From: an uncultured Thermococci archaeon
GTDB lineage: Archaea > Methanobacteriota_B > Thermococci > Thermococcales > Thermococcaceae
Length of the DNA stretch: 20,146 nt
NCBI GenBank assembly: GCA_964615185.1
Contig: CAZTOS010000042.1
Coordinates: 1 to 20,146, forward strand
Reading direction: 5' to 3'
Positions 8,159 through 12,417 of this stretch are shown piece after piece (within the stretch, counting starts at the first letter, position 1; the number at the start of each line of letters is the position of its first letter). The notes beneath the pieces were generated by a model. That model was not told the origin of the DNA, made no database searches, and was given only the letters and a program-made list of their open reading frames with translations. The translations under genes were made by a program, and so were the position numbers.

Positions 8159-9679
8159 ATGAAAATCCTTCTCGTAACAGGAAAACTCGCTGAGCCGTTG
8201 GTGAGAAAATACGGTAAAGGCTGTGATGTATTTGTAACTCCAGTTAGCGTAGCCGCTTTTTTAACGCCAAAGCTTATAGCTCACTATCTAAGAAAGGCAG
8301 GAATAAAAAGTGAAGATTACGATTTAATTATAATCCCAGGTCTCGTTAGAGGGTCAGCTCAAATAATCGAGGATGAGCTTGGGATTCCAGCATTTAAAGG
8401 ACCAAGGTATGCTTTTGACTTGCCTCAAGTTTTGAAAGCGTTGAAGGAAGGCTTCAAGCTGAGCAAGAAAGTTCCTGCCGATGATCTCTTTCAACGGGAT
8501 GCACTTAAGAAGGTTGAGGATGTCAAAAACAAGACGAAAAACAAAGTTTACATTGAAAAAGCCCTCAAAAAGCCTCATAACTTCTTAGTTGGAAATTTGC
8601 CTGTTGGTTTTGACTTCCCACATAGAATCCTGGCTGAGATAGTTGATGCACCAAAGCTTAGCCCTGATGAGATAATCAGCAAAGCAGTTTATTATCTCGA
8701 GAGTGGAGCGGACATCATAGACATCGGCATGGTAAGTGGAGAGACAAATTTGGACTTTATCGAGCTGATTCCAGAAGTTCGAGATGCTCTGAGGGAAAGA
8801 GGATATGATGCTCCAGTAAGCTTTGATTCCTTAAACACGAAGGAAATTGAAAGAGCTTTGAACCTTGCTGACTTGTTCCTCAGCATTGACGAGAGCAACC
8901 TCGAGGAGCTTGTGACTGAGAAGCCAATGGTTTTAATACCTACAAACCAGAAAAAAGGATTCTTTCCGAGAAATCCACATGAGAGAGTTGAGTTTTTGGA
9001 AATGCTCAAAGAAAAAGCCCTTGATTTAGGTTATAAACGAATTATCCCCGATCTTATTCTTGAGCATATCCCTCATCTGGCTCGTTCAATAACTGCTTTT
9101 CAACTCTATCGTGAGAGAAATCCTAATGACGTGCTTTTAGCTGGCGTTGGTAATGTGGTTGAGCTAATCGATGCTGATAGCGTTGGGATAAACGCAGTTA
9201 TGGCGAGTTTTGCCAAAGAGCTGAAAATTTCTCTGCTTTTAACCACAGAAGTTAGTCCCAAATGCCGTGGAAGTGTCAAAGAGCTGAGGAGGGCTTTGGA
9301 CATGATGCTCTTCGACATGCCCAAGGATTTAGGTTTTGATCTGCTGATTTTGAAGGAAAAGAGGAGTGAGAAAGTTGAGTATGAAGTTAAATCCCCTATA
9401 ATTGAAGCCAGAGAAAGGAAAGTTAGGCTGGAGGATATTTATTTCAGAATTTTTACAAAAGAGAACAAAATCTGGGTAATTGCTCACAAAGGAACTGGGC
9501 AGATTTTGACGATAGTGGGAGAAGAGCCGAATGCAATAATTGACACAATTTTAGAGCACTTCCAAATCTCACCAAGGCACGCTTTTTACCTTGGAAGGGA
9601 ACTTGAGAAAGCCAAAACCGCTTTAAAATTGAAACGCTCTTATGTACAGGAGGTGGAGCTGTTCAAGAAGTTCTACTGA
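8159..9679 (+). CDS. Dihydropteroate synthase-like (pterin-binding) protein with DUF4346-like C-terminus
   Basis: MKILLVTGKLA start, LAEIVDAP, GADIIDIG, GVGNVVELIDADSVGIN, HAFYLGRELEKA...YVQE; TTTATAA about 25 nt upstream suggests a leaderless ATG at 8159. Confidence 0.85.
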   Translation: MKILLVTGKLAEPLVRKYGKGCDVFVTPVSVAAFLTPKLIAHYLRKAGIKSEDYDLIIIPGLVRGSAQIIEDELGIPAFKGPRYAFDLPQVLKALKEGFKLSKKVPADDLFQRDALKKVEDVKNKTKNKVYIEKALKKPHNFLVGNLPVGFDFPHRILAEIVDAPKLSPDEIISKAVYYLESGADIIDIGMVSGETNLDFIELIPEVRDALRERGYDAPVSFDSLNTKEIERALNLADLFLSIDESNLEELVTEKPMVLIPTNQKKGFFPRNPHERVEFLEMLKEKALDLGYKRIIPDLILEHIPHLARSITAFQLYRERNPNDVLLAGVGNVVELIDADSVGINAVMASFAKELKISLLLTTEVSPKCRGSVKELRRALDMMLFDMPKDLGFDLLILKEKRSEKVEYEVKSPIIEARERKVRLEDIYFRIFTKENKIWVIAHKGTGQILTIVGEEPNAIIDTILEHFQISPRHAFYLGRELEKAKTALKLKRSYVQEVELFKKFY

Positions 9680-9802
9680 AAAGCTTAAAAATTGAGAAAT
9701 AAAACAGTTTAATGGCGGGCATGTGATGACTTTTCTTTTTTCAAGCCTTGCCCTTTAGGGCGGGGTACAGGGTTCAAAAAGAAGGCAACAAACAGGGAAA
9801 GT

Positions 9803-9846
9803 GAAAAGTATTTAAACTATTAACACCATAATACACTATAGGGTGA
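9803..9846 (+). promoter_or_regulatory. Internal IS promoter with candidate RHH operator and RBS
   Basis: GAAAAGTA-TTTAAA, direct repeats ACACCATA (9823-9830) and ACACTATA (9833-9840), RBS GGTGA 9842-9846. Confidence 0.55.
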
Positions 9847-9852
9847 TTAATT

Positions 9853-10008
9853 GTGAAAAGGCTCGACGTGTACATCCCCGACGAACTGGACAAAAAGTTC
9901 AGAGAAATCGTTAGAAGAAAGTACGGGAACAGAAGGGGCGCCTTGAGCATAGCCGTAGAACAAGCAATTAGAGACTGGATCAAAAAAGTCGAGGAAGAGG
10001 GAGAATGA
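9853..10008 (+). CDS. Ribbon-helix-helix (CopG/Arc/MetJ-like) DNA-binding protein, 51 aa
   Basis: Manual translation MKRLDVYIPDELDKKFREIVRRKYGNRRGALSIAVEQAIRDWIKKVEEEGE; alternating beta-strand, PDEL helix, S-x-x-V-x-x-AI helix; GGTGA RBS; ATGA overlap with tnpB; below the ORF-track size cut-off. Confidence 0.88.
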   Translation: MKRLDVYIPDELDKKFREIVRRKYGNRRGALSIAVEQAIRDWIKKVEEEGE

Positions 10009-11320
10009 AGAGGAGCGTAACAGTAAAACTTCAACCCTCAAAAGAACAAGAGAGGATCCTTTTCGAGATAGCCCAAGCAACAGCGCTAATCTGGAATAAA
10101 ATCAACTATGAGAGATTAAAACAGTTCAAAAAATTCGGCAAAATAAACTTCACGACAACAGAAAAAGAAGCCTATTACACCTTCAAAGACTGGATTGGCG
10201 GCTCAACAGTCCAACAACTGGCCAGAAAGAACGCTGAAGCCTGGCGGAGCTTCTTCACCCTCAACAGAAAGAAAAAGAAGGGAGAACTCTCCTCTTGGTT
10301 CAAGCCCAAGCCACCAAACTTCATCAAGGAAAAGCACGGGAGAAAACTCTTCATTATACCGTTAAGGAACGATCAGTACAGGATTGAGGGTAACGTTATC
10401 GAGCTGAGGCGCCTCGGAAAGTTTGGACGATTAAAAATCCAGTTCAAGGGTAGAATTCACTTGAAGGGTAAACAGGGAAGGCTTGAAATTGTTTACGATG
10501 ATGTTAAACGCAAGTGGTATGCTCACATTAGTTTTAATGTTGAAGAGAAGTTGTCCAAAAACGGTTGGGTTAGAATTCCGAGAGAGCCGAAGGGGGACCT
10601 CTCCGCAGGAATTGACTTGGGAGTAAACAACTTGATGGCTGTTTATGTAGAGAACGGTGAAAGTTTCCTCGTGAATGGAAGACCATTAAAGAGCATAGCA
10701 TTCTACGGGCAGAAAAGAATAGCAGAGTACCAGTCGAAACTCAACAAGTCTGGTGCTAAAACGAGTAGAAAACTCAGAAGAATGCATGAAAAGGTTAAAC
10801 TCCAAGCAAAGCACTACATTAACACCGCAGTTAGGCAGACTGTTGAAAGGCTCTATCAATTAGGCGTTAGCAGAATTGTTGTTGGGTATCCAAAGGAAAT
10901 CGCAAGAGAACCTAATAAGGGTAAAAAGCAGAATTTTATCCTCTCTCACGTGTGGCGTTTCAATTACGTTATCAAACGCTTAACTGAAGTCTCGGAAGAG
11001 TATGGTATTCAAGTTGTAATTACGGATGAAGCTTTCACTTCTCAGCTTTGCCCCGTTTGCGGGAAGCCCCACGAAGGGGCCCGCTTCGTTCGTGGATTGT
11101 TTAAGTGTCCCGCAGAGAGGGCGTTGTAATGAACGCTGACTTGGTTGGAGCGTTCAACATTTTAAAGAAGGTTGTGAAAACCATAACCCCGAGCCTTCTG
11201 GGTTTAGCGGGAGGTAGGGGTAATTGGCCGAAGACCCGGCCAGAGGGGTTCGAAGAACCCTTTGTAAAGGGTTCTCTAATGAGAACCCCTCAAACCTCCC
11301 CATCACTGGCGAGGGGTTAA
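10005..11320 (+). pseudogene. tnpB: RNA-guided nuclease TnpB, frameshifted before RuvC-III
   Basis: RuvC-I AGIDLG, IVVGYP, DEAFTSQLCPVCG zinc-finger region; MNADLVGAFNI (RuvC-III) lies in another frame after the AGAGAG run at 11114-11119; removing 2 nt gives a 437-aa ORF. Confidence 0.9.
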
Positions 11321-11380
11321 TTTGTTGGAACCCTCGCCGTTCACGGCAGGGAGGAGGTCGGATAAATATAGGTTTAGCCG
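11190..11380 (+). ncRNA. TnpB omega-RNA (reRNA/sotRNA) scaffold plus flanking guide
   Basis: Hairpins 11225-11242, 11243-11251/11283-11291 enclosing 11254-11275, and the right-end hairpin; ACCTCC 11294-11299 complementary to GGAGGT 11353-11358 (pseudoknot); 5' end and guide length are estimates. Confidence 0.72.
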
Positions 11381-11469
11381 CATATATTAGAAAATTTTGC
11401 AGGTTATTAACGTATTTTTTGACGAAACCATTATTAACTTAACAAAATTAACCAATCTTGGTGATGCCA

Positions 11470-12417
11470 ATGGTAGTTAGCTTGGCTGGAAGAGATATTC
11501 TCTGCTTACAGGACTTTACAAGAGAAGAAATAGAGACAATTCTCGAAACAGCAAAGATGATGAAGATTTGGAATAAGATAGGAAAACCTCACAGAGTTCT
11601 TGAGGGCAAAACTTTAGCCATGATATTCCAAAAGCCCTCAACAAGAACAAGAATCAGCTTTGAAGTTGGAATGTATCAGCTCGGAGGTTATGCCCTCTAT
11701 TTAAACGCCCAAGACCTCCAACTGAGAAGGGGAGAAACGATAGCAGATACTGCCCGTGTATTGAGCCGATACGTTGATGGCATTATGGCAAGGGTTTACG
11801 CCCACAAGGACGTTGAAGACTTAGCAAAGTACGCAACTGTTCCTGTAATCAATGGTTTGAGTGACTTCTCACATCCATGTCAGGCTTTGGCAGACTACAT
11901 GACAATCTGGGAGAAAAAAGGAAAGATTGCCGGTGTTAAAGTCGTATATGTTGGAGATGGAAACAACGTCTGCCATTCTCTCATGATAGCTGGAACGAAG
12001 CTTGGTGCAAATGTTGTGGTTGCTACACCAGAAGGATATGAACCAGATGAGAAAGTCATTAAGTGGGCTGAGAAGAACGCTGCTGAGAGTGGTGGAAGCT
12101 TTGAGCTTCTGCATGACCCAGTTAAAGCTGTAAAAGATGCCGATGTAATTTACACTGATGTCTGGGCTTCAATGGGACAGGAAGCTGAGGCTGAGATGAG
12201 AAGGAAGATATTCAAGCCATTCCAAGTCAACAAGGAGTTAGTCAAGCACGCAAAACCTGACTACATCTTTATGCACTGTCTTCCAGCACATAGGGGCGAA
12301 GAGGTTACAGATGACGTAATTGACTCACCAAACAGCGTTGTTTGGGATCAGGCAGAGAACAGATTACATGCCCAAAAGGCAGCTCTGTCCTTGATTATGG
12401 GTGGTATTAAGGTTTGA
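11470..12417 (+). CDS. argF: Ornithine carbamoyltransferase
   Basis: STRT, HPCQ, DVWASMG, HCLP, QAENRLH; ATG at 11470 after GGTGA. Confidence 0.97.
   Translation: MVVSLAGRDILCLQDFTREEIETILETAKMMKIWNKIGKPHRVLEGKTLAMIFQKPSTRTRISFEVGMYQLGGYALYLNAQDLQLRRGETIADTARVLSRYVDGIMARVYAHKDVEDLAKYATVPVINGLSDFSHPCQALADYMTIWEKKGKIAGVKVVYVGDGNNVCHSLMIAGTKLGANVVVATPEGYEPDEKVIKWAEKNAAESGGSFELLHDPVKAVKDADVIYTDVWASMGQEAEAEMRRKIFKPFQVNKELVKHAKPDYIFMHCLPAHRGEEVTDDVIDSPNSVVWDQAENRLHAQKAALSLIMGGIKV

Follow-up and report, generated by a model that had tools for sequence, protein, structure and literature searches.

A ribbon-helix-helix gene in the transposase slot of a Thermococcales tnpB element, a likely autorepressor of its operon

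Why does a gene of 51 codons stand between the promoter and the tnpB of an archaeal insertion element? The question arises in the window, that is, the whole 20,146-nucleotide stretch of Thermococcales DNA analysed here, the order being the one to which the names of homologues point. From the letters alone, an earlier note had described a hidden ribbon-helix-helix (RHH) gene coupled to tnpB behind a candidate operator, and had read the pair either as an autoregulated repressor–nuclease operon or as TnpB with an accessory or antitoxin-like partner. Based on comparison of sequences, it is likely, with a probability of roughly three in four, that the RHH protein represses the RHH–tnpB operon. The features discussed are given in Table 1.

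Table 1. Features of the element and its insertion site, in window positions
Feature	Position	Strand	Basis
Target TGAC (host side), in the C box of C/D sRNA sR19	9727..9730	+	Empty sites; contig loose ends at 9727
Left end: pyrimidine run, guide-like CAAG (9742–9745), hairpin (9745–9766)	9731..9766	+	Shared ends
BRE-like purine run and TATA box (TTTAAAC at 9811)	9803..9818	+	Sequence; fits TTWTAW at −30 to −20 (PMC5316973)
Candidate operator: ACACC (9823–9827), ACACT (9833–9837), GTG (9843–9845)	9823..9845	+	Conservation
Ribosome-binding site GGTGA	9842..9846	+	Sequence; fits GGDGRD (PMC5316973)
51-aa RHH protein, GTG start	9853..10008	+	ORF, Pfam, AlphaFold2 model, structural matches, homologues
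tnpB, RuvC-II Glu-to-Gly type; frameshifted near 11114, 374 aa	10005..11129	+	NF040570, motif comparison
Out-of-frame tnpB remainder with RuvC-III motif	11105..11320	+	ORF compared with intact relatives
omegaRNA/sotRNA-like region	11181..11361	+	Rfam matches short of the gathering score: sot0042 (E=2e-7), HgcC (E=7e-6)
Right end: hairpin and terminal GGTCGG	11331..11361	+	End comparison, folding, empty junction

The element and the occupants of its slot

The element spans 9731–11361 on contig C42 and is a non-autonomous IS200/IS605-family transposon. It is inserted 3′ of a fixed tetranucleotide without duplication and has subterminal hairpins. In six genomes of the same genus that lack it, TGAC runs on into an intact sR19, and the right junction is empty in locus L162, where GAC/ATAAAT lies upstream of argF. 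Among 49 ends, target and guide covary (TGAC with CAAG in 25, TTAC with AAAG in 20, other pairings in four); this is expected for Y1 peel-and-paste transposition, as in IS608 and ISDra2. Folding of the element ends and of the operator gave z-scores of −1.0 to −1.5, that of the left-end hairpin (−1.0) not being significant alone. The right end of this copy reads TCGG at 11358–11361 where the other complete ends listed read TCAG (GTCAG), a difference that may impair its excision.

One left end serves three layouts, promoter–tnpB, promoter–RHH–tnpB, and promoter–tnpA–tnpB, all with a TATA/BRE-like promoter, and the distance from the left end to the tnpB start is about 100–117 nt in solo copies, 259–269 nt with an RHH gene, and 527 nt with tnpA. 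The tnpA–tnpB pair on contig C16, with the sole Y1 tnpA of this genome, has the same left end and hairpin as the window element, and the same left end precedes solo tnpB. RHH genes of the window's family are absent from 30 Y1 loci. Because the left end is shared and these loci lack the RHH gene, a single slot takes either the RHH gene or tnpA, and it is empty in solo copies. It had been stated earlier that no Y1 or serine transposase is present; this is true of the element and of the window, in which no transposase gene was found, but the genome has the Y1 tnpA on C16 and two resolvase-family genes elsewhere.

The tnpB gene matches NF040570 (guided_TnpB) at 150 bits, over the cut-off of 100, as well as PF01385 and PF07282, and is of the RuvC plus zinc finger type. 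Its intact relatives have 431–437 aa and a RuvC-III motif that reads NADLVGAFN, with the Asp kept. The frameshift, which the earlier note does not mention, is of 2 nt. Among the contigs of four DNA runs, those that lack the two letters come from divergent copies and none extends across the whole element, so that biological and assembly origins both fit the contig data. Decayed copies are common. Because tnpB is frameshifted, the window copy probably makes the repressor but no active nuclease.

The flanking genes, a DHPS-like gene to the left and argF to the right, lie far apart in relatives (586 kb versus 155 kb in genome G092, for example), and the element may therefore be a recombinant of two copies or an assembly join. 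The promoter, the RHH gene, and the tnpB start are on one contig piece without differences (9736–10190). The rest of sR19 follows another right end, at the second TGAC in the C′ box (G000:C102:1–60), and the 31 nt between the two sR19 TGAC sites were not found in the assembly (window 9716–9730; L151:1920–1979; C102). A C box that happens to precede a C may supply such a target as it stands. Short derivatives that encode no protein but keep the same left end and an omegaRNA-like region are seen at G000:C1:15572–15875, C4:5612–6030, and C31:4500–4885, and in L057, L060, L089, and L104 what stands directly before tnpB is a decayed or truncated relic of the RHH gene, which marks loss of the cassette.

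The RHH gene and its promoter

The open reading frame at 9853–10008 is confirmed as a real RHH gene under purifying selection. Both Pfam matches, to RHH_6 (E=0.0024) and RHH_1 (E=0.0053), are under the curated cut-offs, as are weak RHH matches in NCBIfam. The fold check proposed in the earlier note came out in favour of an RHH protein: an AlphaFold2 monomer model from 13 sequences has a pLDDT of 93, with residues 1–9 extended and helices at 10–24 and 30–50, that is, an N-terminal strand followed by two helices. The best structural matches of this model are the RHH proteins StnY, TacA1, PutA52, NikR, and TraM (Z 6.0–6.4, rmsd 1.4–2.1 Å over 44–50 of the 51 residues, a Z of about 6 being middling). 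Foldseek gave no match to the model at E<=0.001, and the sole match in a PDB sequence search was XACb0070 (E=0.039). Neighbours of the protein in the Atlas are unnamed, or have RHH_6 in 38 % of members.

Pooled dN/dS of the RHH gene is 0.038 and 0.039 in two groups of sequences with Asp at residue 5 (seven and six sequences), and in seven of eight groups it lies between 0.02 and 0.045, the pairs compared not being independent; the eighth, of three nearly identical sequences, gives 0.28. Synonymous sites are 50–70 % diverged in the larger groups. The RHH gene of locus L002 differs from that of the window by nine synonymous and no non-synonymous changes. As had been described, GGTGA ends 6 nt upstream of the GTG start, and the RHH stop and the tnpB start overlap as ATGA at 10005–10008; this 4-nt overlap is kept in 40 of 42 intact loci of the window's element clade. 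To call the gene hidden is an overstatement, however, since its homologues are annotated, among them TK0849 in T. kodakarensis and a UniRef entry for an ‘XACb0070 RHH domain’.

By analogy to known RHH proteins, residues 3, 5, and 7 were taken as facing outward from the beta-strand; in the window protein these would be Arg3, Asp5, and Tyr7. Upstream of the gene, the repeats reported before, ACACCATA (9823–9830) and ACACTATA (9833–9840), are spaced 10 bp, and CACC at 9824–9827 faces GGTG at 9842–9845. All of this is in the sequence, although what is conserved is neither the full 8-mer nor CACC but CAC-N7-CAC-N6-GTG. Every one of the 12 distinct Asp5 promoters in the window's element clade has this pattern, with CAC, CAC, and GGTG invariant; both spaced pairs are in all 12, and one pair is in one of 56 other promoters. 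The third box, the GTG arm, is weak evidence because GTG doubles as part of the ribosome-binding site. In 13 Asp5-class sequences, 12 of 34 upstream columns are invariant, as against none of six four-fold sites and three of 45 third positions. There are seven occurrences of CAC-N7-CAC-N6-GTG in the genome, and the two that lie behind a TATA box are both in Asp5-class RHH promoters. The repeat by itself is modest (223 of the 6125 34-mers that follow TTTAWA in the genome, 3.6 %, hold a 7-of-8 repeat at a spacing of 9–11), and it is not among the top families of a repeat finder run on 9600–11500; it is therefore by its conservation that the candidate operator exceeds chance. The promoter scan was of the sigma-70 type and is uninformative for this stretch.

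Among 24 runs that were listed, none from RNA contains this stretch; published transcription starts are mapped for two homologues. TK0849 (P0121 here) has a primary start 10 nt upstream of its start codon, with modest read counts of 1–246 over five conditions, and for the tnpB homologue TK0850 the supplement rows shown give only antisense and internal starts (PMC4247193), an internal start there bearing on the putative omegaRNA. TON_1245, which from gene lengths appears to be P0023, is listed with TON_1244 as one unit with a primary start (PMC5316973), and in these data the start is 13 nt upstream of a likely TTG codon. On the loci with identical RHHs (L014 and L019), the TATA box begins 26–30 nt upstream of the mapped start. 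By comparison with these homologues, transcription in the window would start at 9837–9841, which places both CAC boxes between the TATA box and the start, and a protein bound there would be expected to obstruct the polymerase. An RNA hairpin hiding the ribosome-binding site was considered and rejected, both CAC boxes being upstream of the predicted transcription start.

Residue-5 classes and the spread of the cassette

A profile search of the fetched loci gave 89 distinct RHH loci, of which 75 with a start codon and upstream DNA were analysed, 14 having been dropped as truncated, relic, or without upstream DNA. Classes were defined by which residues occupy the outward positions 3, 5, and 7 of the beta-strand, and the class motifs were derived from the same sequences on which they are counted. 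In the Thr5 classes, which span three distant TnpB clades, AATAC/AGTAT is enriched, with ATACT at 10-bp steps in one locus (L014). Asn5 promoters are enriched for AATC/GATT, the spaced AATC/GATT pattern being present in only three of six. His5 promoters are enriched for TCGTG/GTACAC, which is also found before the His5 RHH of plasmid pGT5. A KMTIV-type RHH keeps a GCCATA promoter in two unrelated element types, and the second box of the window, ACACT, is one base apart from the Thr5 box ATACT. The idea that the RHH proteins repress tnpA in trans was rejected for now, since none of 26 tnpA promoters has CAC-N7-CAC or two ATACT, the arrays of the Asp5 and Thr5 classes.

The code is not clean. 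ATAC/GTAT occurs 1.33 times per Asp5 promoter versus 1.4–2.2 times in the Thr5 classes, and His5 promoters have CAC/GTG as often as Asp5 promoters do. An unlinked Asp5 homologue (L113) does have ACACAT repeats, in line with the covariation, but at 8-bp, not 10-bp, steps. The promoter and the beta-strand codons lie within 60 bp, and linkage alone therefore makes both travel together. Independent changes of residue 5 are few, there being about four states. A quick TnpB tree of 55 rows shows 13 changes of state at residue 5 and 10 changes in the presence of the RHH gene; recombination between copies blurs trees of this kind. The RHH helix tree is weak, with only 37 columns and 23 of 50 forks open. 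In the literature searched on TnpB, RHH proteins, and Thermococcales, neither the covariation of residue 5 with the operator nor a slot-swapping cassette was found described, nor was any study of the operators of this RHH family or any work on TK0849; likewise, nothing on RHH–tnpB was found in passages of PMC8987985.

The survey of RHH–tnpB co-occurrence that the earlier note had proposed found RHH homologues in 42 of 99 genomes of the order. There are eight in this genome, in at least four classes. No match to profile A1 turned up among 36 genomes from five further families within the order and phylum, viral contigs searched with the RHH query contain no relative, and elsewhere there are distant single matches. 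Members of this one RHH family precede TnpBs only about 25 % alike and plasmid genes including a primase-polymerase; with the window protein, the RHH that precedes the pTI1 primase-polymerase shares 53 % identity, and the N-terminus of pGT5 ORF2 shares 51 %. These relationships suggest that the promoter and RHH gene form a portable cassette exchanged among TnpBs.

Several relatives stand in other settings. pGT5 ORF2 (L168:2230–3423), a 397-aa hypothetical protein, starts with an unannotated RHH domain of the family that has no Pfam match. A second element type, with ends GGGCTGTT ... CAGAACGG and a canonical D-E-D TnpB, carries the same RHH family (L018, L026–L030, L074, L077–L084, L090–L094; up to four copies per genome, with different flanks); its ends are of the GG type and its features IS607-like. 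A His5-class RHH (L021, L022, L024, L088) lies upstream of a gene whose 474-aa product has a winged helix at its C-terminus and which may derive from an integrated plasmid. At G000:C21:12913–14100 and in L096–L103 the RHH gene is followed by a TnpB without zinc finger and with RuvC-III Asp-to-His, the RIIIr-4 type. In these loci an upstream stretch is conserved and the 3′ end is shared, while the flanks beyond that end differ; the loci may therefore be mobile here, unlike in the published description (PMC10691335).

Repression, its alternatives, and known systems

The case for an autorepressor is made by the selection on the RHH gene, its fold, the overlap with tnpB, the conservation and covariation of the operator, the transcription starts of homologues, and the precedent of the bacterial Arc proteins. 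Of the two interpretations proposed originally, the autoregulated repressor–nuclease operon is thus supported, and the antitoxin-like partner is not supported by the distribution of the gene. DNA binding, repression, residue-to-base contacts, and benefit to the element are all predictions of the following scheme. A Y1 TnpA made elsewhere would move the non-autonomous element. One archaeal promoter would give a single RHH–tnpB mRNA, on which the ATGA overlap would couple translation of the two genes. RHH dimers would bind the 10-bp-phased ACAC(C/T) boxes, between TATA box and start, through their beta-strands (Arg3, Asp5, Tyr7), and bound RHH would block initiation, giving negative feedback. 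This feedback would hold TnpB low, and TnpB would rise when repressor is scarce, for instance on entry into a new cell. The promoter–RHH cassette, related to the RHH genes of Thermococcales plasmids, would have dropped into the transposase slot.

A wider reading of the classes is possible but doubtful. Portable promoter–RHH cassettes may have diversified into orthogonal repressor–operator classes, told apart by a code of nearly a single residue (Thr5 with ATACT, Asp5 with ACAC(C/T), Asn5 with AATC/GATT, His5 with TCGTG) and acting like phage immunity groups, such that a copy of a new class would escape resident repression and keep making protective TnpB, and dead copies like that of the window would silence their own class in trans. 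The same cassette would fill the transposase slot of Y1-type and of GG-ended (IS607-like) elements, and would also stand before the RIIIr-4 TnpB; in that case the protein proposed there as an antitoxin would be an autorepressor.

Were the RHH protein an antitoxin-like partner, it would bind TnpB and block RNA-guided cleavage, and its promoter binding would be that of a type II toxin–antitoxin system. The translational coupling is conserved, many RHH fold neighbours of the model are antitoxins, and RHHs 41 % identical to that of the window precede the TnpB clade with Asp-to-His and no zinc finger, for which such a role was proposed from co-folding (PMC10691335). Nevertheless, this is unlikely given how the gene is distributed. 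Pairing is not obligate, since among the 30 closest tnpB loci (77–85 % identical, the best 30 of 290 matches) eight have an intact RHH gene, two a relic, and 20 none; the gene comes and goes repeatedly on the TnpB tree, as counted above; and the same family serves TnpBs of very low similarity, a plasmid primase-polymerase, and other genes. In addition, the protein ends at helix 2 without an extra neutralising tail, and its acidic C-terminal end may be explained by the purine-rich ribosome-binding site of tnpB.

It is less probable still that the RHH protein activates or tunes transcription, or that the gene serves to give tnpB a leadered, coupled start in place of the leaderless one of solo copies. 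The TATA box of solo tnpB is about 32 nt before the ATG, which suggests a leaderless mRNA, and some RHH proteins, such as AlgZ/AmrZ, are activators according to the Arc literature. The boxes lie between the TATA box and the start, however, where RNA polymerase binds, and a leader peptide would not keep a dN/dS near 0.04 or an RHH fold. Least probable is an accessory role in transposition, in which an RHH protein bound near the left end would help or hinder TnpA in trans: the gene is in the tnpA slot, 60–100 bp from the left-end hairpin, but the covarying sites are in the promoter and not in the conserved ends, plasmids and elements whose GG-type ends are unrelated have RHH genes as well, and TnpA acts on single-stranded ends while RHH proteins bind duplex DNA.

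The autorepressor can be compared with several known systems. Bacterial Arc binds and represses the tnpB promoter of IS605-family elements, although some Arc homologues show no specific binding (Moon, Zedaveinyte, Wiegand and Sternberg, bioRxiv 10.64898/2026.09.24.754181; Arc was first noted in bioRxiv 10.1101/2023.11.20.567912). Like the window protein, Arc is an RHH protein of about 50 aa, often unannotated, encoded beside tnpB in an IS200/IS605-family element, its sites overlap the element's promoter, and elements with arc and tnpB without tnpA are mentioned. It differs in that arc is mostly divergent from tnpB, overlaps tnpA, and has a bidirectional sigma-70 promoter, with contact residues Asn5/Asn7/Thr9, whereas the window gene replaces tnpA, is co-directional with and coupled to tnpB, and has an archaeal TATA box. 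The two are compared here by arrangement and proposed mode of action. The main text of the preprint contains no Thermococc, Pyrococc, or IS1341, and ‘archae’ only in a reference, although its set of 8,024 proteins may include those of the family treated here.

Given Arc, the concept of an element-encoded RHH repressor of tnpB is itself no longer new; what is added here is the slot-swapping cassette and the covariation of residue 5 with the operator. Archaea would join bacteria in having TnpB controlled by an element-encoded protein, though with another arrangement of the genes, and a simpler reading is offered for archaeal RHH–TnpB pairs now called toxin–antitoxin systems. The family provides a natural set of predicted 51-aa repressors that differ in their beta-strand residues and have promoter repeats to match, in which RHH recognition rules and cross-talk between co-resident elements are testable; T. 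kodakarensis, which is open to genetic work, has TK0849 as an annotated member. Repressor–operator pairs that are small, thermostable, and orthogonal could also serve archaeal gene control.

The archaeal RHH/MazE–TnpB branch RIIIr-4 has been read as a non-mobile toxin–antitoxin candidate (Altae-Tran et al., 2023, PMC10691335). It shares with the window a small RHH gene directly upstream of tnpB, and the 41 % identical RHH noted above belongs to the matching loci, those of clade C (e.g. G000:C21). RuvC-III Asp-to-His is, however, found only in clade C, whereas the intact relatives of the window keep the Asp, and the TnpB of the window element combines the RuvC-II Glu-to-Gly change described for RIIr-5 with a zinc finger, while the element itself has IS ends, empty sites, and many copies with different flanks. 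The window pair therefore lacks both defining features of RIIIr-4, although its RHH is homologous to theirs.

Among plasmid RHH autorepressors, namely Orf56 of Sulfolobus pRN1, CopG, and the RHH genes of Thermococcales plasmids, which serve as the functional model, the RHH gene is the first of an operon that it represses, as Orf56 does its own (PMC3543421) and as is predicted here; the difference is that the downstream gene here is an RNA-guided nuclease in an insertion sequence and not a replicase. With the IS1341-type (tnpB-only) elements the window element shares the lack of a transposase, a tnpB with a 3′ sotRNA/omegaRNA (a candidate one in the window), and multiple copies (PMC4615843), and it differs from them in having an extra conserved gene and candidate operator between the promoter and tnpB.
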